Positions 2 to 33,500 of a stretch of 36,745 bases of DNA are shown piece after piece (position 1 is the stretch's first letter; each line of letters starts with the position of its first letter). The notes beneath the pieces were generated by a model. That model had not been told where the DNA came from. It did no database searches and saw only the letters and a program-made list of their open reading frames with translations. The translations under genes and the position numbers were made by a program. Source of the DNA: Craspedostauros australis (Eukaryota); the NCBI GenBank assembly GCA_030167865.1, contig JALAGF010002412.1, forward strand, positions 1 through 36,745, given 5' to 3'.

Positions 2-787
2 CATCCCAAGCATTTGTATTGGACCTTGTACTTCTTGCGACACTACGATTGTGTTCTTGCGCTGTCGTCGAAAATGTCTGCGGATCCCAAAACGCTTAAG
101 AAGTGGATTTGGCTTCTGATGAATGAAATTCAGAAGGGATACAAAGGCGTGGTAAGTGAAGAACACCCTTCCGATTGATACATCTCATGATAACACTTAC
201 ATAACGACGACTCACATCACCTTTTCGAATACTTATGCTGTCGGTAATTTGTACAACAGATTAAATGGAGGAATCGCTTGAAGAATGACAAACAGCGAAC
301 GTGCAAAGTCACNNNNNNNNNNNNNNNNNNNNNNNNNNNNNNNNNNNNNNNNNNNNNNNNNNNNNNNNNNNNNNNNNNNNNNNNNNNNNNNNNNNNNNNN
401 NNNNNNNTGGCGATTTGCATTCAAACTGGTGACATCGTTTGGTGCCATGGTCCATTCCCTTGTGGTGAATGGCCTGACCAAAAGATCTTCAACCGTTCGC
501 TTGCGGGGAAACTTGCTCCTGGTGAAATGGTGGAAGCGGACGGAGGGTACGGTGGCCCTCTTGTACGCAAACCAAAGGACTACATTACTCACGCAGACAG
601 GGATGGCAAGAAGCAAGCAAGAGCAAGACACGAAACCATCAATCGTCTCTTCAAGAAATGGAAGATCTTGTATGAACCATTTCGCCACAACATGAAGCTT
701 CACAAGACAGTGTTCAAGGTGGTTGCCATGATCACACAACTGTCCATTGATGAGGGCTTCTTCCAGCCTTTCCAAGTCAGTTACTAG
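2..787 (+). mobile_element. PIF/Harbinger-family (DDE_Tnp_4-like) transposase gene, 5'-truncated by the window, one intron (152-259), interrupted by an N gap
   Basis: Exon 1 reads HPKHLYWTLYFLRHY...DPKTLKKWIW...GV. Donor GTAAGT at 152, acceptor CAG at 257-259. Exon 2 reads IKWRNRLKNDKQRTCKVT[gap]...IVWCHGPFPCGEWPDQKIF...EMVEADGGYGG...ARARHETINRLFKKWKIL...FRH. ADxGY and RxxxETxN match the second D and the E of Harbinger DDE enzymes; the first D would lie in the gap. Confidence 0.8.
313..407. other. Assembly gap (95 N)
   Basis: Run of n. A second 19-N gap lies at 3265-3283. Confidence 1.
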
Positions 788-1403
788 AGAGACGGCGACT
801 AAACAAGTAGAGCAGAGCAGAGCAGAGCAATTGGTTGTACACGTATGAACAATGCATCGCGCAGGAGACCCATTTTGCCTGTCGTGATTTTTGTTTGTGT
901 GGTTGCCAATTCGAATAAATCCCGTTGGGTCTTTGCTTTTAGACCTGAGGGAAATTATCTATATTACCATGGCTCCCAGGAATGAACCAAAAGTGCCTCA
1001 ACCACAGAAGCAGCGCAGTCATCATAGGCTTAGGCGCGCTGGCAGACATTTTGTCAATGCACTATTTAACTCCCCAAAACAAAGCGAATGCGGTTGTGCA
1101 GGCGACAGAACAAAGACACAAGCGACATGACGTGTTCTCTGTTTGACCAATAACGACTCATGCGACTACAATCGTTTCTTCCGAACTGGAACAATTCGGA
1201 AGGGCCGTGGAGTTGTGGTGAATTCACAACAACATGTATTAGTGCAAACGCCAATTTTCAATTCGAACCCGTCGATTGCTCCAATCTCGCTCCAGTCGAG
1301 CCACGAAGGCAACATGCAAGCGAGACAAGACCACATGGTTCATCTGCAGCCTTGGATGTTGCTATCACATACGAGAGGATGGATATCCGTAAGGAATTTT
1401 TCG

Positions 1404-1579
1404 GGACTGAGGAGTCCACTTACGGCTAAGTGGATTCCTCAGTCCACTTACCATTTTTGTTGTTTCGTAAGTGGACTCCTCAGTCCAGTTACCGTAAGTG
1501 GACTGAGGAGTCCACTTACGACCACAAAAAAGTAGTCGAATTTCGCTCATCTGAGAAAAGACCACTTCGACCACCCCAC
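1404..1579. repeat. Left subterminal region: four copies (first one truncated) of a 28-bp palindrome CGTAAGTGGACT-N4-AGTCCACTTACG, followed by the inner inverted-repeat arm
   Basis: Copies at about 1404-1424, 1426-1452, 1466-1493 and 1493-1520. The spacer is GAGG or its complement CCTC. Confidence 0.9.
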
Positions 1580-1743
1580 TGCCCTAGACGGCTGGCTAGA
1601 TAGACTATTGGTGACACAAGACCTAGACTTGTGCACAATAGATACTAGTCATGAATAATGTCACCCAAGCAATCACATTGTCAGTCTCACCTACGAGTCG
1701 TGTTAACAGTCAATCAAGACTGACGAGTCGTGAATCAAGATTC

Positions 1744-1823
1744 AAGTCGGATTAGTCAAGACTCAAACTGAAGTCAGATGAGTCAAGAATCCAACTGGAA
1801 GTCTGATTAGTCAAGACTTAATC
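1744..1823. repeat. Degenerate ~27-bp tandem repeat, about 3 copies (AAGTCnGATnAGTCAAGA core)
   Basis: aagtcggattagtcaagactcaaactg / aagtcagatgagtcaagaatccaactgg / aagtctgattagtcaagacttaatc. Confidence 0.75.
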
Positions 1824-1882
1824 GTATGTAAATATTTGCATATGAGAAGACACTTCTTCAACCATTGACCTCCAACCAAAAC

Positions 1883-1939
1883 GAGAAACCTAATAGAGAA
1901 ACCTAATAGAGAAACCTAATAGAGAAACCTAATAGAGAA
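1883..1939. repeat. 13-bp tandem repeat (GAGAAACCTAATA)x4
   Basis: Four perfect copies plus a partial GAGAA. Confidence 0.95.
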
Positions 1940-2306
1940 TGGATCGGGTTGGGAGAAGTGGAAACCGAATCATCTTGAAATACAATCGACCAAGAGGTGC
2001 AGACAGCAGAAGAGAGAGAGATAGCTCAAGTAATCATAATTTGGTCTTACATCCACAACAACAACCTCAATCGTATCAAGTACAACATCATTCGTAAAAA
2101 AAAATACAACATCAATCGTACGCCGGCATAAGGCACCCACCCTGTCACATTTTTTGGATTCTTCGTGGTGTTGCGTGTAAACTTGTGCACACAGCGATTT
2201 TGCATTGAGACGCACCTCCTCCGTTCCTTCCTTACACAAATACTCTCTCCATCCCCACAATAACAGCAATCAACACTGACTCTACTCTGCATTATATTGT
2301 CTTTCT

Positions 2307-2354
2307 CTACTGTTATGATACTGTTGTGCTACTGTTATGCTACTGTTATGCTAC
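2307..2354. repeat. 11-bp tandem repeat (CTACTGTTATG)x~4
   Basis: ctactgttatg atactgttgtg ctactgttatg ctactgttatg ctac. Confidence 0.85.
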
Positions 2355-2415
2355 AGTCATCCTTGCGAGCCTCTTATGCGTGGAATACGTTGGTGTACAT
2401 AATTCGTATAGTATA

Positions 2416-5400
2416 TCATCGTTTCCGTTTCCTTCCGTACAGACCGTGAGTTATGACCCATGTATCTCTGCTCTGGATCCTGGCTTTGGCGGCTGCCTTG
2501 TGCGCAGCTTGTATTGCTGCTTCCAGATTCAGGACAGGCACCCTTGAGCTAATTATTGTGGCCATGTTTGTTTGATGTTCCTTGGCAGTGGTGGCTTCAC
2601 CGTCGGCGTTGTCATTACTTTCGTTGCTCATCTCTCTTGCTATCTCTGTTACTGCATTTGTAGCTGTGGTGGTTGTCTCATCTGTGTTTGTGCTGATAAA
2701 AGCGTTCATTGTGGTGGCTTCTCTCATTGATGCTGGGCCTTCACCTTCTCTACCCATTCAACAGGCTCCTTGTGCACAAGTCGATGACATAAGTTGTGAA
2801 CAATGATTGCGTCCGCTCTTTTGCGATGTTTCTTATTGCCATGGTTAGGGCAATGCCACATGTCGTGAGCCACTCCTGTTTGTCAGCTTCGATGTATCAG
2901 CAAGCATACAAGTTGCATCCTGGACAGATCCAGTGTCTACACACTGAGCAGGCAACACAGGTTCCCCTCATGTCTGGACAGTACCTTGCTGCATGCTCAC
3001 CCTGCCGCAATCATTTTGTCATTTTGATCTCCTCCTTGGGATCCATCGTGGATAGGCTGGCAAGCATTCCTTTTTATTTTGATGGTCCTCGGGGCATCCC
3101 CGTGGCTGCATCTCGCCATCTTCGACGGCTGACCCGCCTGGTGGAATGATATCAGTGTTGTGGATCGCTGTCTCCATGCCTCCCTTTTGTTTCTTGCCCT
3201 TTCTTTCGTCTGCAGCCATGACTGCGAGCAACTTGCGCAACCGAGCAATGATTCATCCCATCAANNNNNNNNNNNNNNNNNNNTGATTTACTCTGCTGGG
3301 ATAATGTTCGATGGTGCCAGTGTGGCCTGCTTCAATTTCATGATCGGAGTGTGCCTCTGTTGCGTAGTGAATCAATCAATGCAGTGCCACAACCATGGTT
3401 TGTAGCTATCAACCGACTGCTATGCAATGGATTGTTGCAATGAGTGGGGACGCTTTGTGCTGCTGGATGAGCTTTGTTGTTATGTCAGACCCACAATTCA
3501 GGCAGTTCCATACAGCACAGCTCAGGGGAGGAATGTCTTCACTGGAGGTACTGGGAAAGCAAGCATGTTGTGGTGGGTTTGTCAAGTCTTCTTGTGATGG
3601 AATACACCATCCCCTGTGATGTTCCGCAGGTTCTTGCTTGCCCTGCAGAACTTGTTCGTCTTTGGGTTCAGCTTGAGAAACTCTGTATGGAGCGCCTTGG
3701 ATGATTGCTGATCTGCCTCTGGAATTTTGGGGAAGGCAAACGCCAAGAGCAAATGGGATGCATCTTCAGGAACGTTCTCAGAATGATGCAAGAGGCCAAG
3801 GGAAAACCCCGTTCCTACAATGCACAGGATGTTTCCCTTTTTGTCTCTTGTCACCCAATCGAGCGTTCATGTGAGTCAGTGGTTGTGGAAAAGGGATCCA
3901 CAGTTGTGTGAGAAGACAGATGAGGTTGGTACGGAACAAAGTGAAGCCATTCGGACATGGAGAACCTGTGTTGCATTTGCCACAAGGCGCACTTACCGAT
4001 CACAATCAGAGCTCCTCTCACACCATAGACACATATGCATGGTGAAGCACCTGGATCATTTCTTCGTCTGCCCGGAAGAGTGAGCGATATGTTTCATCTT
4101 GTGCATTCAGATATAGATGGGTGCTAGTTGGGAAATTGTGCACATGTTCCACATTTCCGATGCGACTCCCCTTTCAGTTTTGTGTTCTGAGTTGTTCTCA
4201 TCTTCATCTCTACAATGAATACCTCATTGTGTGCATCATTGGTTGGATCCCCCACAATGCTCAGGAAATCGATGGAGGCACGTACGTAGCTTTTGCTCTG
4301 TTTCCGGACGACACCAGCATGAAATGCGGCCTTGATGGTCGTGTTGATTCTACCCACATGTTCGCAGTTCATGGCTGCTCTCATCAGTAGTTCCTCGTTT
4401 GCGTGTCCCAGACGTGTGTAGGCATAGGATTTATCATGCCAGGCCTTCATGAACCATGCCTGCAAAGCTGTCTTTGCAAGCTGTTGCTGCAGTCCCAGCA
4501 ACTGGAGTGATACAGTGCCATCACTTCATTGCGTTCCCCTTGTGTATCAGTCTGGAGACTGGAGGTACTGTTCCTTGTTGCTGCTGTGGCTTAGTCTGCA
4601 TTGTTGGATGGGGATGAAAGATTGCTGTGCTCTGAGCTACCTCTGTTATCATGCGCAGTAGTGTTTTCATCTGGCGGGCACATGTCAGTGAATGCCAATG
4701 TGCCCGGAGTCTCTGCTCTACTGGAAGCACCTGCATTCGACACGGATGTGGCAGTAGTGGGTGGACCAGAGGCAGATGTGCTCAATGCTGCAGTGCCGGA
4801 AGCTGGCGTGCCTGATGTGCAAGGGGTTGGTGTGTTGAATGTGGACGATGTGGATTGTGAGGCAGGTGAGCCTGAAGTCTTGGGCGCAGATGCCGCAGCT
4901 GCGGCTTCTTCAGTGGGGTGTGTGTTGCATGCCGAAGTTTGAAGATATGGAGGATTGAGCTGGAGATGAAGGGAGAGCGAAAGTGCTGGCGACTGAAGTT
5001 GTAGATGTTCAAGTCTGCCGAGCAGACAAAGATTGTCCTTGATGGCAGTGGACGGACTTTGTGCGCCTTGATGCTGGTGTGAGTCGAGATGGCCTCGTCC
5101 ATCTAGAAGCAGATGACCTCGTGCTGTGCGTTGTAGATGTGGATGGAGGAGGAGCTGATGTGGCAGACATCAATGCGGATAATGTGAATGAAGGGGAGGC
5201 ACAACAACTGCATGTACTAGGTGCAATTGTATACCTGCCAGAGTTGCGGTTGATGCTGGCTGCAGCATCACTTGACTGCTGGGTTGCAGCAGCCTGGGCA
5301 ACACTGACTCCCTTCTCACAGGCAATGCCATGCGAATCCTGCAGTTGTTTGTCGTCTGGCTAGGAGATGGGATGGAATGGCTTGCATTGGTTGAAGCAGC

Positions 5401-6171
5401 CATCATTGCAGTCTTGTAGAGGATGTCCATGTCCTTTGAAAGCTGCTTCATGCACAGCCCTTGAAAACGGTTTGGCGGCATCATGCAGTGCTTGCGATTT
5501 GCCTTTCCATGGGTGCTCAGGGTGAGGCTGAGCTTGTTTTGCAACGTCTTGGCTGGACGCTTGTTTCCATTGCGCGAGCGCAGACAGGTGCAGACTTTCT
5601 GGTGAGCAGTCATCCTCTGACCATTGCGCAACAGAGGCTTGTAGGTTGGCCTCCAATTTCGATGAGTTGTCTTGTTCATTTGTGAGCTGCTTGTAGTGCA
5701 CCTTTGCATCAAGCAAGGCCTTTCTCACAGCAACACAAACTCTGCCGTGTTGGGATCCAGCATCTTCCATTGCAGGCCCATAGAAGCCACTCGTTCTGGT
5801 TCTGTCAGAGCTAGTTGTTCAACAGTTCCGGATGTGCCGGTTGCAGATGTGCTGGTTGTAGTTGTGTTAGTGCGAGCATCATTGGGGATGATGATGTTGG
5901 CAGCAGCAACAATGTCAGCAATCAGTATGGCTGCTGGTGCATCATTGACCACATGAGCATTGCCAACAGGGTAGACTCCAGTATCGACGTTGTTGGCGTC
6001 AACATTGCTTTCGTTGTGGACCCCAAGGATGTCATCATTGTTGCCACTGTCAAGATCGATTGGGGTATCAATAACCCAGTCTTCATATGAACTGTCGGTG
6101 TCATTGTCGCTGTGGTTGGTGGCGTCTGCTATGTGCTCGATGAGGGATGCGATGTCAGGCAAAGTACTCAC
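2416..6171 (-). pseudogene. Relic transposon protein: acidic N-terminus, S/T/A/P-rich linker, YqaJ-like PD-(D/E)XK nuclease, piggyBac-like WNxxxxGSD motif, Cys-rich domain, basic tail
   Basis: Fragments across frameshifts: AWFMK...TRLGHANE...GVVRKQSKSYVRASIDF...IVEMKMR (about 4200-4465); QVLHHAYV/YGVRGALIVIG-[intron, GTAAGT at 3996]-DKKGNIL; AVWNCLNCGSDITTKLI (about 3465-3515); RGTCVACSVCRHWICPGCNLYAC (about 2900-2968) and CHRLVH; ends GRKRKR-stop. Multiple stops and frameshifts. Confidence 0.65.
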
Positions 6172-6434
6172 GATGAAACAAGCTTCTTGAAGCTGGTGGG
6201 AACCTAAACAGTGTTATATTAGAGGAACATTTGATGATGAGAGACGTTAATGGTACTGAAGGGGGCGACAATTACGATAAAAAGCTTGTGGTTACACACA
6301 AAGTTGTTGTGTTACCGTCTACAAGTCTATTGAAGTCGAAGGATGCGGTTGACGACACGTAAATCAACGCGACAAAATACGAAGCCAGCATCACAACCAG
6401 AACGCAACCGAGAGAAACAGGGAATTTGGAGAAG

Positions 6435-6551
6435 GTGGAGTGGTCAAAGTAGTCTTTTCTCAGATGAGCGAAATTCGACTACTTTTTTTGTGGTCGTAAG
6501 TGGACTGGTGAGTCCACTTACGAAAACGCCCACACAAAAAATTCCTTACGG
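6435..6551. repeat. Right subterminal inverted repeat, one palindrome copy (6495-6522) and TIR
   Basis: Reverse complement of 6435-6522 matches 1493-1579 with few mismatches (GACCACAAAAAA(A)GTAGTCGAATTTCGCTCATCTGAGAAAAGAC). Confidence 0.9.
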
Positions 6552-7049
6552 ATATAATCGAACAGAAAAAGATTGGTGACAACCTTATCAGATCAAAAGT
6601 CTATATTCACCTTAGTCTATGTCTAGTCTTGTTCTCCGTAGATTGTGTCAGGTCACGCATGAGACTTTTGGTCATGAACCGTTTTCTCTTTCTCTGTTGA
6701 CCTCATATCCCGCAACTCCCAACGGCGCTCAGATACCTGTCTTGGTATCTGAAGGTGGTAATGAGTTGAAGGATGGATGTCAGGCCCTGCCTGTCATCCT
6801 CCTTATGTGCACCTGAACATCTATGTCTGCATCCCTGCGAATCCACCTTCACAGGGCATGTCTACTGTCTTGTTGAGTGAATGTATCTGAGCATCTTGGC
6901 TCAGATACAAGCTCATCAATCCCATCAAATTTGGCAAGATCGCATTTCTGCAATGATCGGATTTGCTGTATGCATCATTGTTGTTCCAAGAAGCAAGAAA
7001 GGTCTTGGAGGTGCCATGAACCTCCTCAGTCTTGCAAACTTGACAACAC

Positions 7050-14561: not shown

Positions 14562-17500
14562 CTATGTAGGCCTTGGTGCGGGCATGCCGCCGTAGTTGTC
14601 GTAATCGTAACGTTCTCTGGATGCTGCTTCGCCTTCGTCTTCTCCGTCATAATCGTCATCTTCCTCGCTGCTTTCGGACATGCTGCCCTCGGCATCATCA
14701 TGATAATCACCCTGGTAATCGCCCTGGTAATCACCATCGTAATCGTCGTAACGGTCATCGTATTCGTCCGAGCTCGTCAAGTCTCCCGGTGAATCATACC
14801 CGATGTCATCCGAATCCAACTCCGAGTCGGTCTCGTCTTCATCGATGTACGAAGACTCGTCTTCCGTATCTTCGACGGCATCCTTGTACAGCACCTCCAT
14901 CTCCTCCACGACCTTCGGGCCCTTGTGCTCCCATTCTCGCTTGTTCTTCATCACGTACGAGATGTACTCGTGCCCGGAGGCACCGAAGGTGCCGCAGTCG
15001 AGAAGCTTCTTTGCCAACGGCAGGAGGTAGTAGTCGAAGAAACCGAGCTCGCCACGGTACCAGTTTTCTGCCGGATGCACAGCGGCAAGACCGGCCTCAT
15101 AGGCATTGTGCATCTCGTGAAACAGGCGCTCGTTCCATCGGCGGTAGATGTGCCAGTGCTGCATGGTGTGCGCCACGTCGCTGACTTGGATCATGTGCTC
15201 GATGACGGCGGTGGCCTTGCGGTTCATGTCCTCCTGGATTTGGAACGCGGATGTGACTTGTCCCGTCGCCGTGACATGTCCCAGCACGGGAGTTGGCCTT
15301 CGGAAGGCCTTGTTCCACTTTTGCTCGCGGGTTTGATTGACCTCTCGCGATGCGATGTCCGTTGCCATGATGCAGTTGATGACCAGCTGTCGGAAGCGCT
15401 TGCGTTCGACGTTGGTTTGGTAGATGCACTTGCGCAGACGTTCGAACCTCGGATCCATGAGCAGCTCCCATCCAATGTGCACCGAGTTCTGTTCGGCGAC
15501 GCTCTTGTTTTCGAACTTGACGGCCAGCTCGTGCTGATCCTTCACCAGCTGCGCGTTGGGCAAGCCGGTGTGGTCCACGTCGTGGATGATCGCCGCGAAG
15601 ACGATGGCAAAGTGGGTGAGCGGATCGGAACTGATTCCGAACGTCGCGTTGTGTAGCTCTTCCTCCTTTTCGTACTCGTCCGATGTGATCAATCGGTTCA
15701 GCATCTTGTTGGCACACAGTGTAACGTGAGAGGCATGCTCGAAGCTGTGGAACGGATTTTCGCGATACATCGCGGCGATGAGGCGGACGTAGTCCCTCAG
15801 GTCGGAACGTGTTTGGTTCATCATGGAGGTATCCGGTCGTTCGCGACGGTATTTCGAGGCTTCCGCATCAAACGGCGGCAGTGCCACCACCTCTGCGACA
15901 TCGTTGACGGCAGATGGCAGCAGCGCAACCTCTGCGCTGTGATTGACCATGGATCCGCGAGATGGGGAACGGCTTCGGAACGAGATGACTCGCGCCAAGT
16001 GGAATAGAAGCAGCTCCACATTCCAGTCGATAAGTCGAGCGTACTTCTCGTCGAAACCTGGATCGTCCGTCATGTTGCCGCTGCTGCTGCTGTTGCGACC
16101 AACATGCATGCTGCCACCCATAGGACGATGCGGCGATGCGGCAACGCCGGGAATCTTGGCGGGCGCTTCGATTGCGCCGTTGGCATTGGAACCGCCGGAA
16201 CGGTCCACCAGGTTGTTGTGCACATTGATGTCGGTGGTGACGCGGATCTCTTTGGTGGTCTTCGTCGCGCGGCGCTTCTTTGTTGGGTCCAACCAGAACG
16301 TCTTGAGTTCGCCTTTGCCTTTGGCAACCACGAGCTTGTCTCTGGGCTTCAGCCAATGGTTCTTGCCTGCTGCGATCAGCAGATCCGCCGTTTCCTGCGA
16401 GATCTGGATGCGCCCACGTTCACCGGTACTCTCCATACGCGACGCGGTGTTGACGGTGTCACCGAACAGCTGGAATCGCGACTTCTCACCACGCAGCACA
16501 CCGGCAGTGACCGGACCAGAGTGCAATCCAACTCGCAGTGCCAAGTCGCTGGTACCTGGCCCGAGATGGGCCTCCAGCTCCTTGATCAGTTCCTGCATGC
16601 CCAGCAACGATTGGTACGCGAATCGGCTCATGTGCACGGCGTGGTGGGTATCTGGATTCGGCAGCCCTGTCACTGCCATGTAACAATCGCCGATGGTTTC
16701 GACCTTGAAGACCTTGAGCTTTGCCGCGATCACATCGAAGCTGCGGTAGAGCGTCTCCAGGAGGGTGAACACCTGCGCCGGCTCGCGCTGCGAACTCCAC
16801 GCAGTGAATCCAGCGATATCCGCAAAGAGGACGGTCGTGTTCTGGAAGAAGTCGGCGATCGGTTCGGACGATAGATCGGTGGAGGTCTCGGGCATGGAGA
16901 GGAACTGCTTGATCGACACCGAACCACCTCCCGGAGCGCCGTTGAGCCGCTTCTTCGATCTGGGTCCGCCGTTCTTTGTTTTACTGCGACCTCCCGAAGG
17001 CTTTCCATTCTTGCCGTTGCCGTTCTTGCCGGAGCCATTGGCACCGTCTCCATTGGCGCTGCCATCGCCGTTGTTCTGGTCTGCAGATCCGTTGCCGAGG
17101 GCTTTCTTGGAGGATGAACCCGCGGCATTGAGGGCGCTGCTTTTAGAACTGCCGGTGCCACCCAGACCTGTGCCGTTGCCGTTGGCGCCGTTCCCGCTGC
17201 CCCCCATGCCACCGGACGTTGAAGTGTTGTTGAGGATGGGCAAGGACGATCCGGCAGAAGCGCCGGCGTGATCCCCCTTCTTGTTCTTGTTGTCCCCGAC
17301 GTTCTGCAACATACGATCGCGCACTTGCTCTGGGAAGAGGTTGGAGACGACGGCGGAGAACTTGGTGGCGACGTTGACGACGACCGATTGGCGCTTCTCG
17401 ACGTACCAGTCGTAAACGGCGAAAGCGGAGATGAGGATGCACATGGCAATGCCAGCGATGATGGGGTATATTATCGTCTCCTGAACGGCGGGATCGTCCA

Positions 17501-19556
17501 CGGATTCGATGGCTGTGGTTTCCTGCTCGAGGTTCTGCAGCGGCACGATACGCACCGTGAGCGGGCACACCGCACCGTCCGCACCAGCAAATGGTTTTTC
17601 GAACTCGCTGTACGCGAATGCGGTCGGGATAGTGAGCGTCCTGTCCCAGTTCTGGTTGATGGATTTTCTCGCATCTTGGTTACCGCCAGCGTACTGGACG
17701 GTGCCATTCACGAACACATCGTATTGGTGAATATCTGCCTCCGCACCGGCCGTCGCACTTGCATTCGAGCATTGGAATTGCACATTTAACGAGATGATCG
17801 GCGCTGTTGCATCGAGATCAGGGTTGGCGTTGTCATCGTTATCAGGAAGGGCGACGGCGGTCTGAAGCAAGCGCTCTATCGAGAAGACGAGGGAGACGAT
17901 TCCGATCATGTCATTCTGCTGGAAAGTTTCGAAGACGGGATAGTAGGTGGTGGTAGTCGGTTGCTGCTGTTCATTTGCGTTCGCCGCAGCTCTGCTAATG
18001 TCGAAGGAGCTCCAATAGCCAATCTTGTTGGACACGACGGTCTGAATGTCCTGGTTCATTTGATTCTGCAGGACGAACGTGCTGTTGGCATTGTTGCCAA
18101 TGAACGGCGGAACGATTTGCCACACGGGGTTGAGGAGGAAGGAATCGTCGTCGCCACCGGGCGGTGTCGTGATCTCGGTGACCACTTGGCAACCGATGAG
18201 GGAGCATGTTTGCTGCTGCTGCGTGACCGCGTAGTTTGTGTACTGTTCGATGGCGGTGGGGACGTTGAATATCAGGGGGGCGAAGATGACATACTGTGGT
18301 GCCAGGGTTTGGTAGATGCCTGTGACGATAGCCTCGAGGTTGTCCAACGTGACGAATGCCCCATCGTCATTCGTAATGCCAGAGTTGCCGTCGTTGGGAC
18401 TGGTTTGGGTGGCATCGAGACTGGCCGACGTGTACATCGCGGAGACGGTGAAGAGGGAGGAAAGGATGTTTTGGTTTTGCTCCGTCCAGAGATGTTGAAA
18501 TGAGTGCGCGAATGAATCCAACCAGAGGGGAGACGTGGTTGCGTCGCCGTTGTTGGTGGTACCGGCGCTGGCTGCATTGATGTCATCCCGCAGCTCATCC
18601 TTGTCCCTCGCCAGATCCCACATGAGCACGGCAAAGACGATGGGGACGAGGATGAGGACCGCGACGACTACGTAGCGCAGCTTGTCAACGATGGCGATCT
18701 CCTTGCGGACGAGCTTCATGACGACCTCGTTGTCTCGATCTTCCTGCTTGTCGCCGCGTTTGTGGCGTCTGCCGTACTTGCCCGATCTGCGGTGCCTGCG
18801 CGATGGGAAGAAGAATCCCAAGAAGCGAGAGCCGTGCACGGAATGGCCATCCGATCTGTAGCCCGCGGATTCCGAATCATGCGAGGAGCTGCCCTCGTCG
18901 GAGGCGACGATGGAGAGCTCTTCGTGGTCGAAGCGATCGAAGTTGGTTGCGGAGTTGAGCCTGGAGGCTCTCGGCGGTGTTGATGAGGATACGATCGAGG
19001 CTCCTGTTGCGGTGTGCTGGCTTCCGCGCATTCCGTGGCCGGAGTTAATCATGGAGGGAGGATTTTGCGGATTGTGATGGACACGCGAGGTTGACGCTTT
19101 GCGCTGGAATGGGAGCCTGGGATAGGTTCTTGCGTTGGAGTTTCTGCCGCTGCCGCTGCCCCGCCGCATGTTGTTGGTGGCGTTGTTCATCGGAGCGTGT
19201 CCATTCATTTCTGTGGGTGCGTTGGAATGCAAGGCTGTGTTGGTGCGTGCGTTCGACTGCGAATACGAACCTTGTGCTGGATTCCGCGGATGCTGCGACA
19301 TGGGCGATGGAGGTGGGACGGGCGCCATCCTTGATGATGGTTGTTCCGACCGGTACTGTTGCTGGTGTTGCTGCTGCTGATGCTGCTGGTGTTGTTGCTG
19401 GCGTTGCTGTTGTTGCTGGTGGTGTCCCGATGACATGGCTGGTTGCTGCATTCTGGTTCCTTGGTCGCGAAATTGTGGACCCATCGCCCGTTCCGAATGC
19501 GCAGATGGATTGGTCTCAGTGCGTTGTTCGGTTGCTGCCACTGTTGCTGCTGCCAC
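14562..19556 (-). CDS. Receptor-type class III nucleotide (probably guanylate) cyclase fused to a C-terminal class I cyclic-nucleotide phosphodiesterase domain; two TM helices around a CHASE-like sensor region
   Basis: TM1 YVVVAVLILVPIVFAVLMW, TM2 IIYPIIAGIAMCILISAFAVY. Cyclase: TVLFADIAGFTAWSS, KVETIGDCYMAV, RVGLHSGPV, FQLFGDTVNTASRMES. PDE: NPFHSFEHASHV, IHDVDHTG, MATDI, SDVAH. The ORF start at 19556 is GTG and the first ATG is at 19484, so the true start is uncertain. Confidence 0.92.
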   Translation of the reverse strand: MAAATVAATEQRTETNPSAHSERAMGPQFRDQGTRMQQPAMSSGHHQQQQQRQQQHQQHQQQQHQQQYRSEQPSSRMAPVPPPSPMSQHPRNPAQGSYSQSNARTNTALHSNAPTEMNGHAPMNNATNNMRRGSGSGRNSNARTYPRLPFQRKASTSRVHHNPQNPPSMINSGHGMRGSQHTATGASIVSSSTPPRASRLNSATNFDRFDHEELSIVASDEGSSSHDSESAGYRSDGHSVHGSRFLGFFFPSRRHRRSGKYGRRHKRGDKQEDRDNEVVMKLVRKEIAIVDKLRYVVVAVLILVPIVFAVLMWDLARDKDELRDDINAASAGTTNNGDATTSPLWLDSFAHSFQHLWTEQNQNILSSLFTVSAMYTSASLDATQTSPNDGNSGITNDDGAFVTLDNLEAIVTGIYQTLAPQYVIFAPLIFNVPTAIEQYTNYAVTQQQQTCSLIGCQVVTEITTPPGGDDDSFLLNPVWQIVPPFIGNNANSTFVLQNQMNQDIQTVVSNKIGYWSSFDISRAAANANEQQQPTTTTYYPVFETFQQNDMIGIVSLVFSIERLLQTAVALPDNDDNANPDLDATAPIISLNVQFQCSNASATAGAEADIHQYDVFVNGTVQYAGGNQDARKSINQNWDRTLTIPTAFAYSEFEKPFAGADGAVCPLTVRIVPLQNLEQETTAIESVDDPAVQETIIYPIIAGIAMCILISAFAVYDWYVEKRQSVVVNVATKFSAVVSNLFPEQVRDRMLQNVGDNKNKKGDHAGASAGSSLPILNNTSTSGGMGGSGNGANGNGTGLGGTGSSKSSALNAAGSSSKKALGNGSADQNNGDGSANGDGANGSGKNGNGKNGKPSGGRSKTKNGGPRSKKRLNGAPGGGSVSIKQFLSMPETSTDLSSEPIADFFQNTTVLFADIAGFTAWSSQREPAQVFTLLETLYRSFDVIAAKLKVFKVETIGDCYMAVTGLPNPDTHHAVHMSRFAYQSLLGMQELIKELEAHLGPGTSDLALRVGLHSGPVTAGVLRGEKSRFQLFGDTVNTASRMESTGERGRIQISQETADLLIAAGKNHWLKPRDKLVVAKGKGELKTFWLDPTKKRRATKTTKEIRVTTDINVHNNLVDRSGGSNANGAIEAPAKIPGVAASPHRPMGGSMHVGRNSSSSGNMTDDPGFDEKYARLIDWNVELLLFHLARVISFRSRSPSRGSMVNHSAEVALLPSAVNDVAEVVALPPFDAEASKYRRERPDTSMMNQTRSDLRDYVRLIAAMYRENPFHSFEHASHVTLCANKMLNRLITSDEYEKEEELHNATFGISSDPLTHFAIVFAAIIHDVDHTGLPNAQLVKDQHELAVKFENKSVAEQNSVHIGWELLMDPRFERLRKCIYQTNVERKRFRQLVINCIMATDIASREVNQTREQKWNKAFRRPTPVLGHVTATGQVTSAFQIQEDMNRKATAVIEHMIQVSDVAHTMQHWHIYRRWNERLFHEMHNAYEAGLAAVHPAENWYRGELGFFDYYLLPLAKKLLDCGTFGASGHEYISYVMKNKREWEHKGPKVVEEMEVLYKDAVEDTEDESSYIDEDETDSELDSDDIGYDSPGDLTSSDEYDDRYDDYDGDYQGDYQGDYHDDAEGSMSESSEEDDDYDGEDEGEAASRERYDYDNYGGMPAPRPT

Positions 19557-21003
19557 TGCCCGCCGTTGCTGATAATCAGGATGAGCCTGCAGCTTCCTGT
19601 CTCCTCTCTCTGCCCTCTATCTATCGATCTATCGATCCACCTGTTCGCCAATCTGGATCAGATGCCAGAGAGTCTTAGTATCTTGCCAAGATGGTTTGTT
19701 CGACCTCTTGCACAGTCTGCTGTGGGTAAGACAGTTCGAGTATAACGCCAGGGCCTGGTCTCAATGGTCACAGCGCAGGGTGTCTGCACTGATAGCAGTC
19801 AAAGCAGAACGACGTTCCTCTGCTGTCGCTGTCGCTGCTTCTGCTGCAATTGTGGCGAACGTCGCGAAGAAGGCAGTTCGGTTGATTCTCTCTTCTTTCG
19901 CGGAGGCGGATGTGAAGGATTCGTTTGCACCCCTCTCCCTCTGACCTCTCTGCTTGTTTCTGCTTCTGCTTCTGGTTGCCGTTCTGCCTTGTCCCTCGTG
20001 CTCGTTCAACTGTTCGAATGATGGCTTTGTACTCGTAAAATGCGTACAGCAATCCACTCTATCAGTACTGCGCGTTGCTCTGCGTCGCTGTCTTGCTTCC
20101 TCGTCTTGTCTTTTCTGTCGTTATAATTGCGCAGCAGCTGGCATTCAACGATGGCGGATGGCGTTGATCACAGAGATGCAAATGTGAATATGAATGCAAC
20201 TTCGATGGATGATGGGTATGAGGCACCTCTTCGTTGTCGATCCCAAAGGAGCAGAGAGACGGAGATGGAAGGAGACTGATCCTTTCGTGCGGCTCTTCGA
20301 TTCGTTTTGTTGCCTGCCTCTCTTGCCTCTCTTGTCTCTGGTCGTGGTCGCCTCTTGTTGCTCTCTCTGTCTTTCTTGCTGTCGTCGCGCGTTTTGCCAC
20401 CACCAACAGACAACAAAGCCCCTCCTCTCACGAAACGGAATAACGCCACTGTCGCGAAGAGGCCGGTTCCATTCTGCGCCATGCGACACACATGTTCCGA
20501 AAAACAAAGCGTGCAAAAGTCGCAACCCGCTTCACACGGAAAATGGTCATTGTATCGTTGAATCCCATCCAACCCAACAAAGAATCCTTGGTCACTGTGA
20601 CCGACCGAACGTGATTGATGCCACGAATGGTTGGCGTCGTTGTTCTCTCACGACTTGGTGCATACGTCGATCGAGTCGAATCACGAATCAGATGAGAAGA
20701 GATGGCGACTGACGTTGGTGGATTTCTGTGGAAATGAGTTTGGCCACTGCACTTGTGCCAAGTACTCGTACGAGTGGAGTGGAGTATCGTGTGCGGTGCA
20801 ACCACATCATCGGCCTTGCTCATCATTACACTCATGCGGCCACGCATTCATGTGCGCCATCGCAGCATGTCTCCCATCATGTGCTCATGGCCTTCCCCAC
20901 TCACATGATTCGAAGACGTACTCGTGGCTCGCACCATACTTCTCTGGCCATTCCTGTCACATTCTCTCCAGTCCACCGCATCACCGACCAGTTGTGAACG
21001 ACC

Positions 21004-24174: not shown

Positions 24175-26010
24175 TTAGAATCGGCTTTGCCTCGATTGCT
24201 GCACCCCAGCTGGCCCCTGCTGGTGAGGTGACGGTGCCCCAACTTGATTCTGCGAAGGAGGCGGCCATTGGAGAGCGGCGGCCGAGAAAGGAAACCTCAT
24301 TCCTGGCCCGGCACCACCGTTGCTCACCATGCCTCCTGCTGAAGCCCCCATGTTGGTGCCGCCACCATTGCCACCACCATTTGTTGACGTCCCTCCCAAC
24401 TGAGGTGCCGAGAACATGTGGTGTGGCGTTAAGTTCATGTTGACTCCAGCAGGGTTCCCGTTCTGCACTCCCAAGGAGAAGGGGATGGTCGAGTTGAGCG
24501 TGGCCGCGGGCACCCCTGCTGCCATCCCCTTGAGAAGATGAGCCGCGCTATGCACCCCTTGCAGGCCTGGGCTCATGTTCAACATCTTGGACTGCTGCGC
24601 CGGTGGCATAGCCGTGCCCAGACCAAAGCTGTTGCCAAGCTGCAGCATGGGGGTGGGCGTGCTTGGGCTGTGGGCTTGGCCGTTGTTGTGGTTGGGATAG
24701 GGCGACGAAATGGACTGGATGGGGTTGGACGGTGACATCTCGTAGAAGTTGGGCTCCGTCCGAGCATCCGATGGTTGCTTGTGCCCCGTCCCCTTGACCT
24801 TCTGCCGTTGCATCCGCATGCAGAGCTGAGGCTTGCCGCGGAGGAAGAGCTCGTGATAGTAGGCGCCCGCATCGGCCCCCTGCGTTATTCTTCGGAACCC
24901 GTACAGGTTCAGCTGTGCGTCCAAACGGGCACAGAGCGCAAAAGCGTAAGAGTGTACATGTTGTATGGTATGTTGTATGTTGCGCAGCGATGAAGAGTGA
25001 GAGATCGCTCGTTCACATAAGAAAGCGTGTTGCAGCAACGCGAGGGAGATGTAGGAGTCTTGGTGAGCAACCGAAGCATCAGAACATTGAAGGGTCGGCT
25101 TCAAGTTGCGATCAAGATTCACAGGAACGACGGGGTGGCCTCGTGTACCGGGCAACAGCGACAGCAACAAACAACAAACGCAAGAGAACGCAACATGCCA
25201 CCACGAGATCAAACAGGGTGCGAACAGTTGACCGACCGAAGTTCTCAAGATTGCCCGAAAAGGCGAAACTGTACGCACCTGCCGCTGGAACGACGTCAGC
25301 TTAGTCTGACGGAAGTACTTGGGCATGATGTCCCTCGTGAAGTCCTTGGGTTTGCGAACGATGAAGGACCTTCCGTGTGGCGACCAACCGACAACATTCG
25401 TGCGTTCGCTGTCCAGTAGCTCGTGCAGCTTCTCGGGGAAGGGCTGGGAGACGCCTCCTGTTTTCTTGCGCACGAATGCCACGGGTTCTGGTTCGTGAGC
25501 AAAGTCGTGGTAGACGTGCGGGACGCCGCGCTTGCGGTTGGATCCTGTCGAAGATGTGCGTCGTTTCTTGGGGGTCTCATTTCCCCCGCTGTGGGAACTC
25601 ATCGGTTCGGCTGCGGGCGCTGATGCTTGGTTCGAGTTCAACGGAGACAGGGTGACCGTGGTCGCCGACGTGGTTGGAGTCGCTGACATCCCCAAGCCTC
25701 CCTCGACGGACTGCGGTGATGCCGGAGAGTCCACGGCGCACGAAGGAGGCGTCACCTTGGCCCACACGTAGGACGGGAATGGTGAGCCAGAGCGATTGAA
25801 TCCGGCCATGCAATTGTTGTTGTTGTTTGTGTTGCCGTCCTCCGTCTTTGTGTTGGTTGTGTTGTCGAATTGGCCAGCAACATTCAGTTGAGAAGCGGCG
25901 GCGTTCGCGTTCGCATTCGTGGCGTTTTGGGTGCTCAGCGCAGTGGGAACCTCGTTCTTTCCGCTGCTGCTTGCTGGTGCCGGAGGCGCCATGATGTTTG
26001 ATGTGTTCAT
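24175..26010 (-). CDS. Heat shock transcription factor (HSF-type DNA-binding domain); exons 26010-25279 and 24912-24175
   Basis: PFPEKLHELL...VVGWSPHGRSFIV...FTRDIMPKYFRQTKLTSFQRQ | LNLYGFRRITQGADAGAYYHELFLRGKPQLCMRMQRQKVKG. Intron CAG/GTGCGT (25278) to GCACAG/CTG (24913), 366 nt. Confidence 0.92.
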   Translation of the reverse strand: MNTSNIMAPPAPASSSGKNEVPTALSTQNATNANANAAASQLNVAGQFDNTTNTKTEDGNTNNNNNCMAGFNRSGSPFPSYVWAKVTPPSCAVDSPASPQSVEGGLGMSATPTTSATTVTLSPLNSNQASAPAAEPMSSHSGGNETPKKRRTSSTGSNRKRGVPHVYHDFAHEPEPVAFVRKKTGGVSQPFPEKLHELLDSERTNVVGWSPHGRSFIVRKPKDFTRDIMPKYFRQTKLTSFQRQVRTVSPFRAILRTSVGQLFAPCLISWWHVAFSCVCCLLLSLLPGTRGHPVVPVNLDRNLKPTLQCSDASVAHQDSYISLALLQHAFLCERAISHSSSLRNIQHTIQHVHSYAFALCARLDAQLNLYGFRRITQGADAGAYYHELFLRGKPQLCMRMQRQKVKGTGHKQPSDARTEPNFYEMSPSNPIQSISSPYPNHNNGQAHSPSTPTPMLQLGNSFGLGTAMPPAQQSKMLNMSPGLQGVHSAAHLLKGMAAGVPAATLNSTIPFSLGVQNGNPAGVNMNLTPHHMFSAPQLGGTSTNGGGNGGGTNMGASAGGMVSNGGAGPGMRFPFSAAALQWPPPSQNQVGAPSPHQQGPAGVQQSRQSRF

Positions 26011-27916
26011 GGTGGCAACGTCAGTGCCTGTGGTGATGCTGATGCTAACGCTGATGCTAAAGATACCGTGGCGCTGAAGTGTGTGATGATGACGACGACA
26101 GGGATGGGAATGGCGACTATGATGTGGGATGCTGTCTTTGGATGATGTGCGGCTCTTCTGTGGCCACGGACGGATGATTGTGCGGGCGCTGGAGTTTGTG
26201 GCTCTCGCTGTCCTCTGATGTTGGGAGTTTGATGGCGTGCCTTGATGTTTGGGTCACGATGATGCGAACACCCAAAAAGAGCAGTCAGCCTTCCGAAAGA
26301 TGTCTTTGCCGACGCTGCGGGCGAGTGCGAGGTGCTTCTCAAGGCAGCCTGCTGGTGCTGGGCGTTGCTGTCTGTTGTGGAACACGCTTGTGTTTGCCTG
26401 ATTGTCGCTGACAAGGCAGTGGGAGGAGATGAGTTCGTTGATGGACTACTTGGCTGCTTGGTTGATTGCCTGGTTGAATCAATCACTGGCCGCTCTGTCT
26501 TTGACTTTGACTTTGCCTGGTTGAGATTTGGTTCCAAGAGACGTGAGCTGATGAAATGATGAGCCTTGTTCTGTTCGATCAAGTGATGGCTTGGATGTGG
26601 TGATGATGGGTGTGTGTTCGCAGAGATGGAGAGTGTTCACATTTGCTGTTGAGGCTGTTGTGGAATCGGATTGGATTTGCCGCCACAGAACAATGGAGAG
26701 GGGTGTTTGTGGCGAGGCGAAACGGTTCGCGTGTTCTGATTGGAGATGGCTATTTCGATCTTCTTGTGGTGGTGCTCTGTCTGTTTCTGATGGATCGTGC
26801 TCGAGGGAGTAGCAACGGGGTGCGCCAAGCTGCGCGTGCGAGAGAGAGGGTGTTGGTATTGATGTGTGTGCGTGTGTGGTGTGAGGGAGAGCGATGGCGG
26901 ACGAGAAGGATGTCAGCTTCGCAGAGAATTCTCAACCGTTGCTCTGATTTGGGCGCAATCAAATGGGTTCCGTCGATTTGGTGTGAACCTTCACGCTTCT
27001 GTGAAAGCGGCAGCGATGATCGCGGTGATGGCAACCAGATTGGGGTGGAGGAGACCACCCACAGAGAACTGCAACAACAACACGACACCACACACACCAC
27101 GAGGATTCGCACCCGTGACAATGGATACATCCCCCCAACAACGCACAGACGTGAGCCCAATCAACTCCTTTCGTTTCGATGCGGACAAGGACCATTCGTA
27201 CACACGCGCACTCGTGCTCGTACAACACGCATCGCAGTCGTATCGTGGCACACGCGAACCCTACCTTCTCTGTTGACAGGGGAACGAATTCCAAAAGAGT
27301 CTGAAGAACACAAGCTGGACGGACGGGGATGATGGGGTTCTCATTTGTCCGACCATCCTCGCGTCAGTTCGCCATCATCGTCGTCGCTGTGCACAAAGAA
27401 GGCGGCGTTTCTCTTGCGTGTTCGTTTTGGCGCGATTCTGTGCTTGACGTTTCAGTCCAGTCCCGTTACGACGGATGCAATTGTAGACTTCACATTGTGC
27501 ATAGATTGCTTCAATGTTCTGATTCTCCAACGCTTTGGAATAGCTGATCGCATCGTATTCTATGAGCATGTACAAACAATAGTACAATACAATACGACTA
27601 CTACTACGTATGGTACCCGCAATAGTGCCATCGCTATGTTGTCGTCTGTAATACAATTGAGCGTGAATCGGTTGTTTCGATTGATGGATCCACTTCAAAT
27701 CGACAGTCCAAACCAATGAGTTGCTCATTCTCGCTCATGCGACTTATCGTATGTATTGTGTGCTATTGTAACATCGTGCCGAAGCGCATACCAACAGAGG
27801 AGCAGAGGGATTAACGTTGCGCCATGCTCTGCACTTGTGGAGAAGGAGGAGCCGGCCATGTCTCAACACACCCCACCACATGGAGCATCCGCATCAACGC
27901 GGGCAGCTTTCATGTT

Positions 27917-31714: not shown

Positions 31715-32529
31715 TGTATCGAGATGTACATGTGAGTATATGTCAAGATGTACGTGTATATGTGCATCGTTCACCCATTATTCTCTCATACGCACTTGGA
31801 CGGTAAAACTACATTCGTGTTAATAGTATGCTGTGATTTGTCAAAATCACACCACAAATGGAACACGAAAATGAGCAGAATTTCTGGAGGAAATTTGTAA
31901 TCAACGATTTCTGAGAGAATCAGGAACATCGGTCGTCCATCCATCAATGGAGACGTATGGCATCGAGCGAAGCTCGATGTACCTCCCAACTAATCCCCAG
32001 ATGACGATATCATCTGACAGACCATCGCATCATTGATGGAACATGACATCTGGAGAGCAGAAGGACGCTTACTGACGTCGACAGGATGTCATTGTGTCAC
32101 CATGTCGACATCTGTCTCCATGTCAGAAGCAGAAGGTGAAGATTCGAAGACCGAAGGGCATCGAGATCATGGATGCACGAAGAGGAGTTCAAGTGGCAAG
32201 CACTCATGGAGTAGAAGTCAGTAGTGAACGAACGGAGTGTTGAATGCGGAGCACGCATCGAATACGGAGTATCATGTGGTGCAAATACATGATATTGGGA
32301 GAGAGTGAGAGAGAGGGAATATGAATAGCAGCAAGAGAGCATCTCACGTACTGACTCATAGTCGGAGACCAATCTACGAAACAGAGAGACATGCCGAGAG
32401 CATTGGGCAAGAGAACGGGCGTACACCGAGAGGATTGGAGTGCCAACGTAATGAAATAGCAAACAGAATGACTATCAACCAACACCGTCTTCCACAATCG
32501 TAGGCTTCCGTGCGCAGAACTTGCCAACA
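31715..32529 (+). mobile_element. LTR copy A (~0.81 kb) of a Ty1/copia family, inverted relative to copy B
   Basis: Starts TGTATCGAGATGTACATGTGAG and ends TTGCCAACA. Colinear along its length with the reverse complement of 33582-34367. The left boundary is uncertain by about 2 bp. Confidence 0.85.
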
Positions 32530-33500
32530 GTGTCTTGTATTCGTTGCTCACTGTGCTGAGGATCTGCATGATCATCTCCTCGTCTGTGATCGAGTACTTG
32601 ACATCGTGGAGACGTGAGCGTAGAAGCTCAAGTCGTGTGATGTACACATCGGGGTCTGTGTCTCTCTTCATCTTCTCATTGTTGAATTGACACTTGAGTT
32701 TGATTTTGTTGCTGCGTTGGATGGCCAGAACTTCTCCGTGAGAACTTTCCATGCCACATGTGGATTCCCCTCAGGGTAATCGTCGGAGATGCATTGGTTG
32801 ATGTATTGGATGGCCTGTTTGCCTTTTCCTTTCTCTGCATCCATCATGAGGATCAAATCGCTGAAGCAGTCGGCTGCCAGCTTGTGGGTCTCCTCCATTA
32901 CTTCCTTGGCATCGTCAGTGGCTGCTCCGATCTTGCTCATCGTTGGGATCTTTGTCTGGCCCAACATCACGTCTCTCGTCTTCTGTGTACGAGCGTACGC
33001 CTTTGCTTGGGACTCCCATGCGCTGTAGTCTTCCTGTTCACTGCTGAATATCGGCACCTTGATGCGTCGCTTGTTCGTGTTGGCTGATGTCGCCATCTTG
33101 ACTTGTTTTTTGTTGGTGGTGCGCGCACGCCCTTGATTTCCGTCTGTTCCTGTGTTGTCGTTTCTTCGATTTTTGCTAGTTGTTTCGCGGAGATTGTTTT
33201 CCTCACAATTTCTCCTCCTAATTGTGTCTCACTTTTCCCACCTTGTTTGGCTGTGTGAATGCTCTCCGTCACACCAGTCTCCTCTTGCTTGATCGCCTTG
33301 AGAATGCTCTCCTCCTTGCGATGTAGTCTCCCAAACCGTTCCTCGTCGGTCTTGTCGATTGCGCTTGCTTCTGCGCTAGACAGGACAGTGGGCGCACCCG
33401 CTTCCTTCTGTTGTTGAAGTCGAGTCTCACTCGCACCTTCTTCTTGCTTGATAGCCGGATTGGACAGAGGGATGTCTCTCAATTCCTCTTCCTTGCTCAT
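32530..33500 (-). pseudogene. gag: Truncated Ty1/copia (CoDi-like) gag with apparent frameshifts at ~33100 and ~32705
   Basis: VPIFSSEQEDYSAW...AYA, CFSDLILMMD..KGKQAIQYI...DYPEGNPHVAWKVLTEKFWP / KLKCQF...DPDVYITRLELLRSRL...ITDEEMIMQILSTVSNEY (UBN2 / Retrotran_gag_2-like). Cut off by LTR A; no pol visible. Confidence 0.85.

Follow-up and report, generated by a model that had tools for sequence, protein, structure and literature searches.

A decayed transposon of Craspedostauros australis and a rare piggyBac-like transposase family with a predicted built-in exonuclease

The 36,745-nucleotide (nt) contig JALAGF010002412.1 of Craspedostauros australis (GenBank assembly GCA_030167865.1), analysed over its whole length and termed here the window, carries at positions 1383-6555 an element that is probably a non-autonomous, decayed copy of a rare eukaryotic lineage of cut-and-paste transposons, whose piggyBac/Tn5-like transposase would hold a nested nuclease of the lambda-exonuclease type. 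The proteins related to its relic gene form a small family, a rare and unnamed variant in which a piggyBac-like transposase has a built-in exonuclease; such a pairing is unusual and has a precedent. An earlier note, made from this DNA alone, had proposed a piggyBac relative with an internal exonuclease. The fold of the N-terminal domain and the alignment of the nuclease profile, both obtained with relatives of the relic gene, agree with that proposal, which is largely upheld; the Pfam families DDE_Tnp_1_7 and YqaJ were not detected.

Ends and relic gene of the element

The element is bounded by a perfect inverted repeat of 19 nt consisting of ATAT and CCGTAAGGAATTTTT, with arms at 1383-1401 and 6537-6555 that are 100% complementary. 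Within the 36.7-kb window, the 15-mer CCGTAAGGAATTTTT matched only at 1387-1401 on the plus strand and 6537-6551 on the minus strand, and two matches were obtained in 0 of 100 shuffles. At both ends the palindrome ATAT (1383-1386 and 6552-6555) flanks the termini CCGT...ACGG, which confirms the ends described in the earlier note. The left ATAT and its identical right counterpart, which is part of the 19-nt repeat, may represent a 4-bp target-site duplication in this single copy, and no duplicated flank was observed beyond them at the element ends. Since ATAT is palindromic and one copy is available, an ATAT duplication with a 15-nt repeat, an AT duplication with a 17-nt repeat and a 19-nt repeat with no duplication are not separable. 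No paralogous empty site was found in the window.

Inside the terminal repeats, both ends carry the compound inverted repeats that had been noticed earlier. The left end (1387-1579, plus strand) comprises the 15-nt terminal repeat, three copies of the palindromic 26-mer GTAAGTGGACTGAGGAGTCCACTTAC (1426-1451, 1467-1492 and 1494-1519) and subterminal arms spanning 1488-1579. The right end (6435-6551, minus strand) comprises subterminal arms at 6435-6527, a single copy of the 26-mer at 6496-6521 and the terminal repeat at 6537-6551. One pair of subterminal arms (1526-1579 and 6435-6488) is 54 nt long with 94% complementarity and the other (1488-1531 and 6484-6527) 44 nt long with 89%. When both strands were counted, the 26-mer gave five matches against none expected. 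With their terminal and subterminal repeats, these ends are suited to binding by a transposase. A non-coding 3' part of the element (1735-2354) contains tandem repeats of 27/28 bp (three units, 1735-1818), 13 bp (4.4 units, 1883-1939) and 11 bp (4.4 units, 2307-2354).

Between the ends lies a relic gene on the minus strand, the reading frame of which shifts several times within 6213-2760. Its recognizable parts are colinear by tblastn with P0011 (1327 amino acids, aa), which together with P0005 (972 aa) is the longest of the relatives described below: residues 738-852 of P0011 correspond to 4492-4154, residues 881-900 to 4089-4030 and residues 1029-1133 to 3555-3229. In the direction of transcription, the relic begins with an acidic N-terminal open frame of 162 aa (5725-6213), which lacks an in-frame start codon and has no Pfam family above cut-off, followed by Ser/Thr/Pro-rich and other frames without a significant relative (4591-5818). 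Two short peptides upstream of the nuclease, a SAP-like helix MKTLLRM (4670-4650) and a putative nuclease N-motif QNQNEWLLW (5804-5778), are possible remnants and serve as leads only: neither was significant in a search with the hidden Markov model (HMM) of the family, and QNQNEWLLW obtained no score. The core of a predicted lambda-exonuclease-type nuclease (4124-4525), detected by phmmer, the family HMM and hhalign, comes next and contains LGHANEE (4411-4391), ASIDF (4279-4265) and VEMK (4213-4202). A further nuclease piece (4021-4173) with QVLHHAYV (4053-4030) can be joined to this core only through a reading-frame shift of 1 nt that lies near 4160, in a GGGG run between the VEMK and QVLHHAYV motifs. 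A C-terminal transposase-like region with the motif WNCLNCGSD (3510-3484) occupies 3229-3555; it was matched by the P0011 segment already mentioned (E 2.7e-6) and by residues 928-959 of P0005 (E 0.013). Last comes the relic of a Cys-rich domain (2772-2959), a by-eye match to the tail of P0011, in which CVACSVC (2959-2939, a CxxCxxC arrangement) and WICPGC (2932-2915) are followed in a different frame by LCHRLVH (2792-2772).

All the peptide motifs listed by the earlier note are thus present on the minus strand. Its statement that the nuclease motifs stand directly upstream of the C-terminal ones has to be amended, QVLHH and WNCLNCGSD being separated by about 520 nt, and its final CxxxH is in fact a C-x4-H motif located in another frame. 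The intervening distance includes a likely intron of 152 nt (3845-3996, minus strand), read from the sequence with a donor G/GTAAGT at 3996 and an acceptor ..AAGAG/ at 3845. Its excision fuses ..ALIVI to DKKGNIL.., as in P0005 LLLVGDKSGSIL, and the spliced relic ..DKKGNILCIVGTGF agrees with P0005 LLLVGDKSGSILRGVYITF. At the same point P0011 has 28 additional residues, beginning with GK, that are read through. The change of frame at 3845-3996 is therefore likely to reflect an intron and not damage.

Other features indicate decay and bear out the description of the gene as a relic. Besides the 1-nt frameshift, three in-frame stops were found, two of them adjacent (3411-3406) and one at 3378-3376, all within the stretch that aligns to P0011, and the K-G of the WN..KGGSD motif is replaced by N-C in the window copy. 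The observed/expected ratio of CpG is 0.48 in the relic gene as compared to 0.92-1.15 in three large host open reading frames (ORFs) and 0.75 in an ankyrin ORF, with normal GpC, a depletion that may reflect the slow decay, through methylation, of a repeat kept silent. An assembly gap of 19 N (3266-3284) also falls within the C-terminal region of the relic gene. Just 3' of the Cys-rich relic, a 113-aa open frame with a Met start (2416-2757, minus strand) showed a sub-threshold match to I/LWEQ (E 5.6e-4); it could be noise or could form the end of the transposase-like gene.

Domains of a small protein family

An exhaustive phmmer search of 1.84 billion representative sequences with the 133-aa nuclease core (4124-4525) returned two matches at E≤1e-3, P0001 (4.6e-6) and P0002 (2.4e-5). 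Starting from P0001, word-indexed searches retrieved nine proteins at E≤0.01, and a profile search retrieved eight at E≤1e-3, adding P0011. A search for shorter C-terminal relatives yielded only a 56-aa piece, P0012, and four short metagenomic contigs (L001-L004, at most 2.9 kb and devoid of flanks) also encode the family, which amounts to about 12 proteins across two collections of billions. When the family HMM was run against the six frames of the window, the nuclease core was recovered with an E-value of 1.4e-17. None of the 12 window fragments reached the Pfam cut-off, no family member was above threshold in Pfam, PDB or NCBIfam, and sequence searches of PDB gave no match at E≤10. The viral contigs that were searched contained no relative, and the phage DNA searched with the relic gene contained no match. 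In the Protein Atlas the fragment lay nearest to viral clusters, with one YqaJ-bearing cluster (16% of its members) at rank 11, a weak signal, and the C-terminal part of P0011 found no usable match there.

The gene models P0001, P0003, P0004 and P0007 all end just past ..R(Y), a point where P0005 has an odd hydrophobic insert and L001 reads GGTATGG (about 2520). These features suggest a second conserved intron at ..R(Y) that would truncate the four models. In the databases, mis-prediction seems to affect the family's public gene models at two conserved introns, one following ..ERY and the other following ..VIG, and full-length proteins are consequently probably commoner than the protein collections suggest. 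In P0011 and P0005 the order of domains is the same, namely a piggyBac/Tn5-like N-domain, a split nuclease and a motif of the WNxxKGGSD type, to which P0011 adds a Cys-rich tail.

The N-terminal domain was examined in an AlphaFold2 model of P0005 built from a 13-row alignment, with a mean predicted local distance difference test (pLDDT) of 52 and values of 65-90 over residues 50-380. Foldseek comparison of this model with PDB placed piggyBat (9c0f_D, E 2.2e-4) and piggyBac (6x67_C, E 2.3e-4) first, followed by five Tn5 chains. VIA-align superposed model residues 57-462 on residues 117-497 of 6x67_C (Z 12.4, root-mean-square deviation 4.5, 290 residues aligned), and gave Z 11.2 for 9c0f_D and 9.7-10.1 for Tn5, the next row being an Argonaute complex at Z 5.5; no hAT-like transposase was among the best 50 rows. 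In the model, DDD199-201 stands at the end of strand 194-199 and D286 after strand 281-285, so that by prediction they stand where the first and second catalytic residues are canonically found, after beta1 and beta4, and a three-strand sheet (340-369) corresponds to the insertion domain. The motifs DDDK and DRxY that contain these residues are invariant in nine of nine sequences of the family alignment A2. The association of piggyBac-type DNA-binding, RNase H-like DDD and insertion domains was found for the relative P0005 only, with Tn5 close.

The middle part of the family is, judged by its sequence, a PD-(D/E)XK nuclease of the lambda-exonuclease/YqaJ type interrupted by an acidic/SAP-like insert. 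A reference profile of lambda exonuclease and seven diverse phage exonucleases (eight in total) was compared with the family by hhalign. The N-motif (..VTT.QNsPgWFLlRsFSiTSS.. against exonuclease residues 7-42) aligned with P 1.4e-3 and the core (GHkNE ... SVD ... ExK against residues 80-133) with P 6e-4, bringing G81, E85, D119, E129 and K131 into register. When the columns of the insert (about 185 aa) were omitted, which was the analyst's own choice, 111 columns aligned with a probability of 88% (P 2.8e-6) and Q19, W24 and R28 were also in register. In control comparisons the reversed profile reached 0.4% and the best of 30 column-shuffled profiles 5.3%. The order of motifs (Q..W..R...T.S, G...E, S.D, E.K) is thus identical in the family and in the phage lambda exonuclease/YqaJ group; in contrast to the phage enzymes, the domain of the family is split by the insert and resides within a eukaryotic transposase instead of beside a phage annealing protein. 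Sub-threshold matches of the P0007 N-motif point to the same group (PHROG 434, a RecE-like exonuclease, E 0.022, and TIGR03033, the lambda-exonuclease family, E 0.049). A model of P0011 residues 520-1010 had a mean pLDDT of 47, and its predicted succession of a helix, three strands and a helix would fit the alpha-beta-beta-beta-alpha-beta, restriction-endonuclease-like fold of PD-(D/E)XK enzymes, but no exonuclease was matched by it. For the insert, the SAP domain of PIAS1 (1v66) was matched with a probability of 0.94 and the SAP domains of Ku70 and Hcc-1 with Z about 5.

Downstream of the nuclease, P0011 and P0005 continue with ..iP.vFS.WN..KGGSD..TK..., the motif reading WNSMKGGSD in P0005, WNALKSGSD in P0011 and WNCLNCGSD in the window, at a place where the model is poor. 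The C-terminus of P0011 (CFLCG..WWCGSC..LC....CFVEAH) has its relic at 2959-2772 of the window. In piggyBac transposases the third catalytic Asp lies in ..YN..KGGVD..DQ.., and a Cys-rich domain follows about 100 aa later. The Asp of WNxxKGGSD may by analogy of sequence be the third catalytic residue, in which case the nuclease would be nested inside the catalytic domain. Docking of the N-domain (P0011 residues 100-470) with the C-terminal segment (1015-1200) gave discordant scores in three runs (0.00, 0.74 and 0.00).

Rival readings and comparison with known transposons

The nuclease core and the WNCLNCGSD motif are retained in the window copy, along with relics of the Cys-rich tail. The family HMM, run with filters off on 1174 stop-to-stop pieces from the six frames of the window, recovered the nuclease core only, profile positions 1-655 remaining unmatched; no frame of the 36.7-kb window showed a DDD core, in agreement with tblastn. 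The simplest reading of these results is that of an internally deleted, non-autonomous relic that later decayed. With the DDD core absent, a frameshift, three stops and CpG decay, the copy could move only with enzyme provided by a full-length one. The earlier note had failed to find the first two catalytic Asp motifs and had proposed either their deletion or a catalytic role for the PD-(D/E)XK domain. As DDDK and DRxY are kept in all nine relatives and were undetected in the window copy, deletion is the better reading and a take-over of catalysis by the nuclease is disfavoured. It could also be imagined that the copy is no deletion derivative and that its lineage encodes a protein made of the nuclease and the C-terminal part, the DDD core being supplied from another locus. 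The failure to detect this core anywhere in the window and the long open frames without relatives in the 1.7 kb upstream of the nuclease core would accord with such a division. We consider it improbable, since both halves are contained in a single protein in P0005 and P0011, the C-terminal half alone would hold at most one catalytic Asp and the window copy is plainly decayed.

Whether the nuclease would be nested in the transposase or appended to it depends on the third catalytic residue. An IS4/Tn5-like or piggyBac-like transposase could be complete before the nuclease, with its third residue among D378 and D386 (P0005 numbering), the nuclease being joined on behind it, in the manner of KolobokE, and the WNxxKGGSD motif being a chance likeness. 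The structural alignment with piggyBac (117-497) does extend to model residue 462, thereby spanning the position of the piggyBac third Asp ahead of the nuclease core, and WDL and P..D are invariant right after the insertion sheet. This part of the alignment is however unreliable because model residues 422-528 have pLDDT <50, and the stretch placed there is the N-motif of the exonuclease. Moreover, WN..KGGSD..TK is kept in P0011 and P0005 and decayed in the window, about 200 aa before the Cys-rich tail, roughly its position in piggyBac. An appended nuclease is accordingly the unlikely arrangement of the two, and we favour nesting.

Several observations weigh against a piggyBac-like transposase with a nested exonuclease, and against the proposed history of the window copy. 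Pfam DDE_Tnp_1_7 (PF13843) gave no match at E≤1 to 10 with the window fragments, P0001, P0002, P0005, P0011, the eight members of alignment A1 or the C-terminal pieces, the sole related Pfam match being DDE_Tnp_1 on P0001 (E 0.093), and Pfam YqaJ (PF09588) gave none at E≤1 among window fragments or relatives. As the Tn5 scores come near those of piggyBac, the fold of the N-domain shows the IS4/piggyBac class and not piggyBac specifically. The nuclease and C-terminal parts were modelled poorly (pLDDT <50), and Foldseek and a wide VIA search with the poor nuclease model retrieved SAP-like helices only and no lambda-exonuclease fold. The strongest exonuclease alignment was obtained after the discretionary removal of columns mentioned above. 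In the C-terminal part of P0011 the only Pfam zinc-domain match was zf-B_box at E 0.51, the likeness of WNxxKGGSD and the Cys-rich tail to their piggyBac counterparts is one that we presume from the piggyBac consensus, and either of the invariant D378 and D386, located before the nuclease, could instead be the third residue. The flanks are ATAT/ATAT instead of the TTAA of piggyBac, their 4-bp length being compatible, in one copy only. Finally, the loss of the DDD core from the window copy is deduced from non-detection, and the deletion breakpoints were not located.

Given the outcome for DDE_Tnp_1_7 and TTAA, the element is called piggyBac-like and not a member of piggyBac. It shares with piggyBac a 4-bp, AT-only palindromic flank and CC..GG termini, and the family shares with piggyBac and piggyBat (6X67, 9C0F), the best structural matches of the P0005 N-domain, the Asp residues after beta1 and beta4 and a beta-sheet insertion domain. 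The family differs in having about 500 aa of exonuclease and acidic/SAP-like insert that separate the insertion domain from the putative third Asp and in a protein about twice as long, and the window copy differs in that its catalytic core was undetected. Sola, Kolobok and other superfamilies are without Pfam models according to the available text of PMC5751038, so that missing Pfam matches are not in themselves unusual.

Three known groups offer partial parallels, as far as the accessible portions of their descriptions go. KolobokE fuses a lambda-exonuclease-like PD-(D/E)XK nuclease to a DDD/E transposase, and Kolobok, which has been reported from a diatom, is characterized by a C/DxxH signature, by zinc fingers that form part of its catalytic domain (CCHC in KolobokE), by TTAA duplications and by RR..YY termini (PMC9587614). 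The family likewise unites a transposase and a lambda-exonuclease-like nuclease in one protein, but no Cys lies between DDDK and DRxY, at the CCHC position, no C/DxxH was seen in alignment A2, the element has ATAT flanks and CC..GG termini, and piggyBac and Tn5 are the top structural matches. ISL2EU (PHIS) elements encode YqaJ in an ORF separate from a Harbinger-like DDE/THAP transposase, duplicate AT in the context A/AT/T and have repeats starting with GG (PMC4482050). A YqaJ-type exonuclease protein and AT-rich insertion sites are common to both, whereas the nuclease of the family is fused, no DDE_Tnp_4 match was found in the family and its repeats start with CC, or with AT in the case of a 2-bp duplication. 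Sola2 produces AWWT 4-bp duplications, including ATAT, and its DDD transposase has no Pfam match (PMC3627910); the ATAT flank would fit AWWT, but the Sola2 motifs DFAENY, SDG..QYKN and CDGxGG (Sola2 alignment, Additional file 10 of PMC3627910) are absent from A2. The comparison with Kolobok and ISL2EU advised in the earlier note thus found the signatures of neither. On the strength of these signature motifs, compared with the published descriptions in the parts available, KolobokE, ISL2EU and Sola2 were ruled out, and membership of the element in any of them is very improbable.

There is an appreciable possibility that the group is already catalogued, either as a piggyBac-related family of Repbase/Dfam or among the diatom elements reported in 2009. 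For the latter, the available text of PMC2806351 mentions, without detail, that two diatom genomes contain transposase elements, uncharacterised and 'weakly related to piggyBac', and these may be the same group; the host genes of the window look diatom-like as well. No paper uniting a piggyBac and a YqaJ/lambda-exonuclease domain in one element was found in the full-text literature, part of which was covered by title and abstract, Repbase/Dfam being outside this search. If the group is already catalogued, novelty alone falls. That the element instead represents an undescribed piggyBac-related lineage, perhaps an IS4/piggyBac branch at the level of a superfamily, with an exonuclease and SAP-like module that separates the insertion domain from the third Asp and with an ATAT target, is a tentative proposal that we hold with some doubt.

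Genomic surroundings, proposed mechanism and meaning

Other mobile-element relics and host genes surround the element. About 600 bp to its left, a relic of a PIF/Harbinger-type transposase (248-787, plus strand) is interrupted by a run of N and matches DDE_Tnp_4 just above cut-off (E 1.5e-5). The relic of a Copia-type long terminal repeat retrotransposon gag lies at 32204-33500 (minus strand), with Retrotran_gag_2 at 32204-32770 (E 2.7e-7) and more open frames upstream. A single open frame of 1684 aa (14562-19616, minus strand) encodes a fusion of guanylate/adenylate cyclase and 3',5'-cyclic nucleotide phosphodiesterase with long Gln- and Gly/Asn-rich tracts, and a 692-aa open frame (24175-26253, minus strand) carries an HSF-type DNA-binding domain in two matched stretches (E 4.2e-20). 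The host genes of the window, namely the guanylate cyclase-phosphodiesterase fusion, the HSF gene and an ankyrin-BTB gene, are intron-poor, with the Harbinger and copia relics alongside, a content that suggests a diatom or another stramenopile.

The piggyBac-like reading with a nested nuclease would imply the following mechanism. Intact relatives would have a single protein product of about 1300 aa, which begins with an acidic N-terminus and continues with a piggyBac/Tn5-type DNA-binding and RNase H-like domain carrying DDDK, DRxY and the beta-sheet insertion domain. The third part would be the lambda-exonuclease/YqaJ-type PD-(D/E)XK nuclease, into which an acidic linker and a pair of SAP-like helices are inserted, and the last parts the WNxxKGGSD stretch, taken to contain the third catalytic Asp, and the Cys-rich domain. 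Such a transposase would bind the terminal repeat and the 26-mer palindromes, excise the element by DDD catalysis and re-insert it at an AT-only 4-bp site, here ATAT. The built-in 5'-3' exonuclease might then resect the ends left by the break and so direct the donor gap to repair by homologous recombination. This role of the nuclease, 5' resection favouring homologous repair of the donor, is proposed by following the logic of the KolobokE and ISL2EU nucleases.

Transposases with their own end-processing nuclease are rare, the nuclease being fused in KolobokE and encoded by a second ORF in ISL2EU, and such nucleases bear on the gap-repair bias of cut-and-paste elements and hence on their increase in copy number. 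As for the window copy, it is a dead relic; its value is that it points to the family and that no other copy here has both ends. If the nested lineage is real, excision and end resection would be the work of one polypeptide, which would steer donor repair to homologous recombination. A nuclease nested in a piggyBac-type catalytic domain, together with an altered 4-bp target, would then constitute a new architecture in a transposase family much used as a genetic tool, and would name a dark protein family of about 12 members, devoid of Pfam matches, from environmental eukaryotic data.

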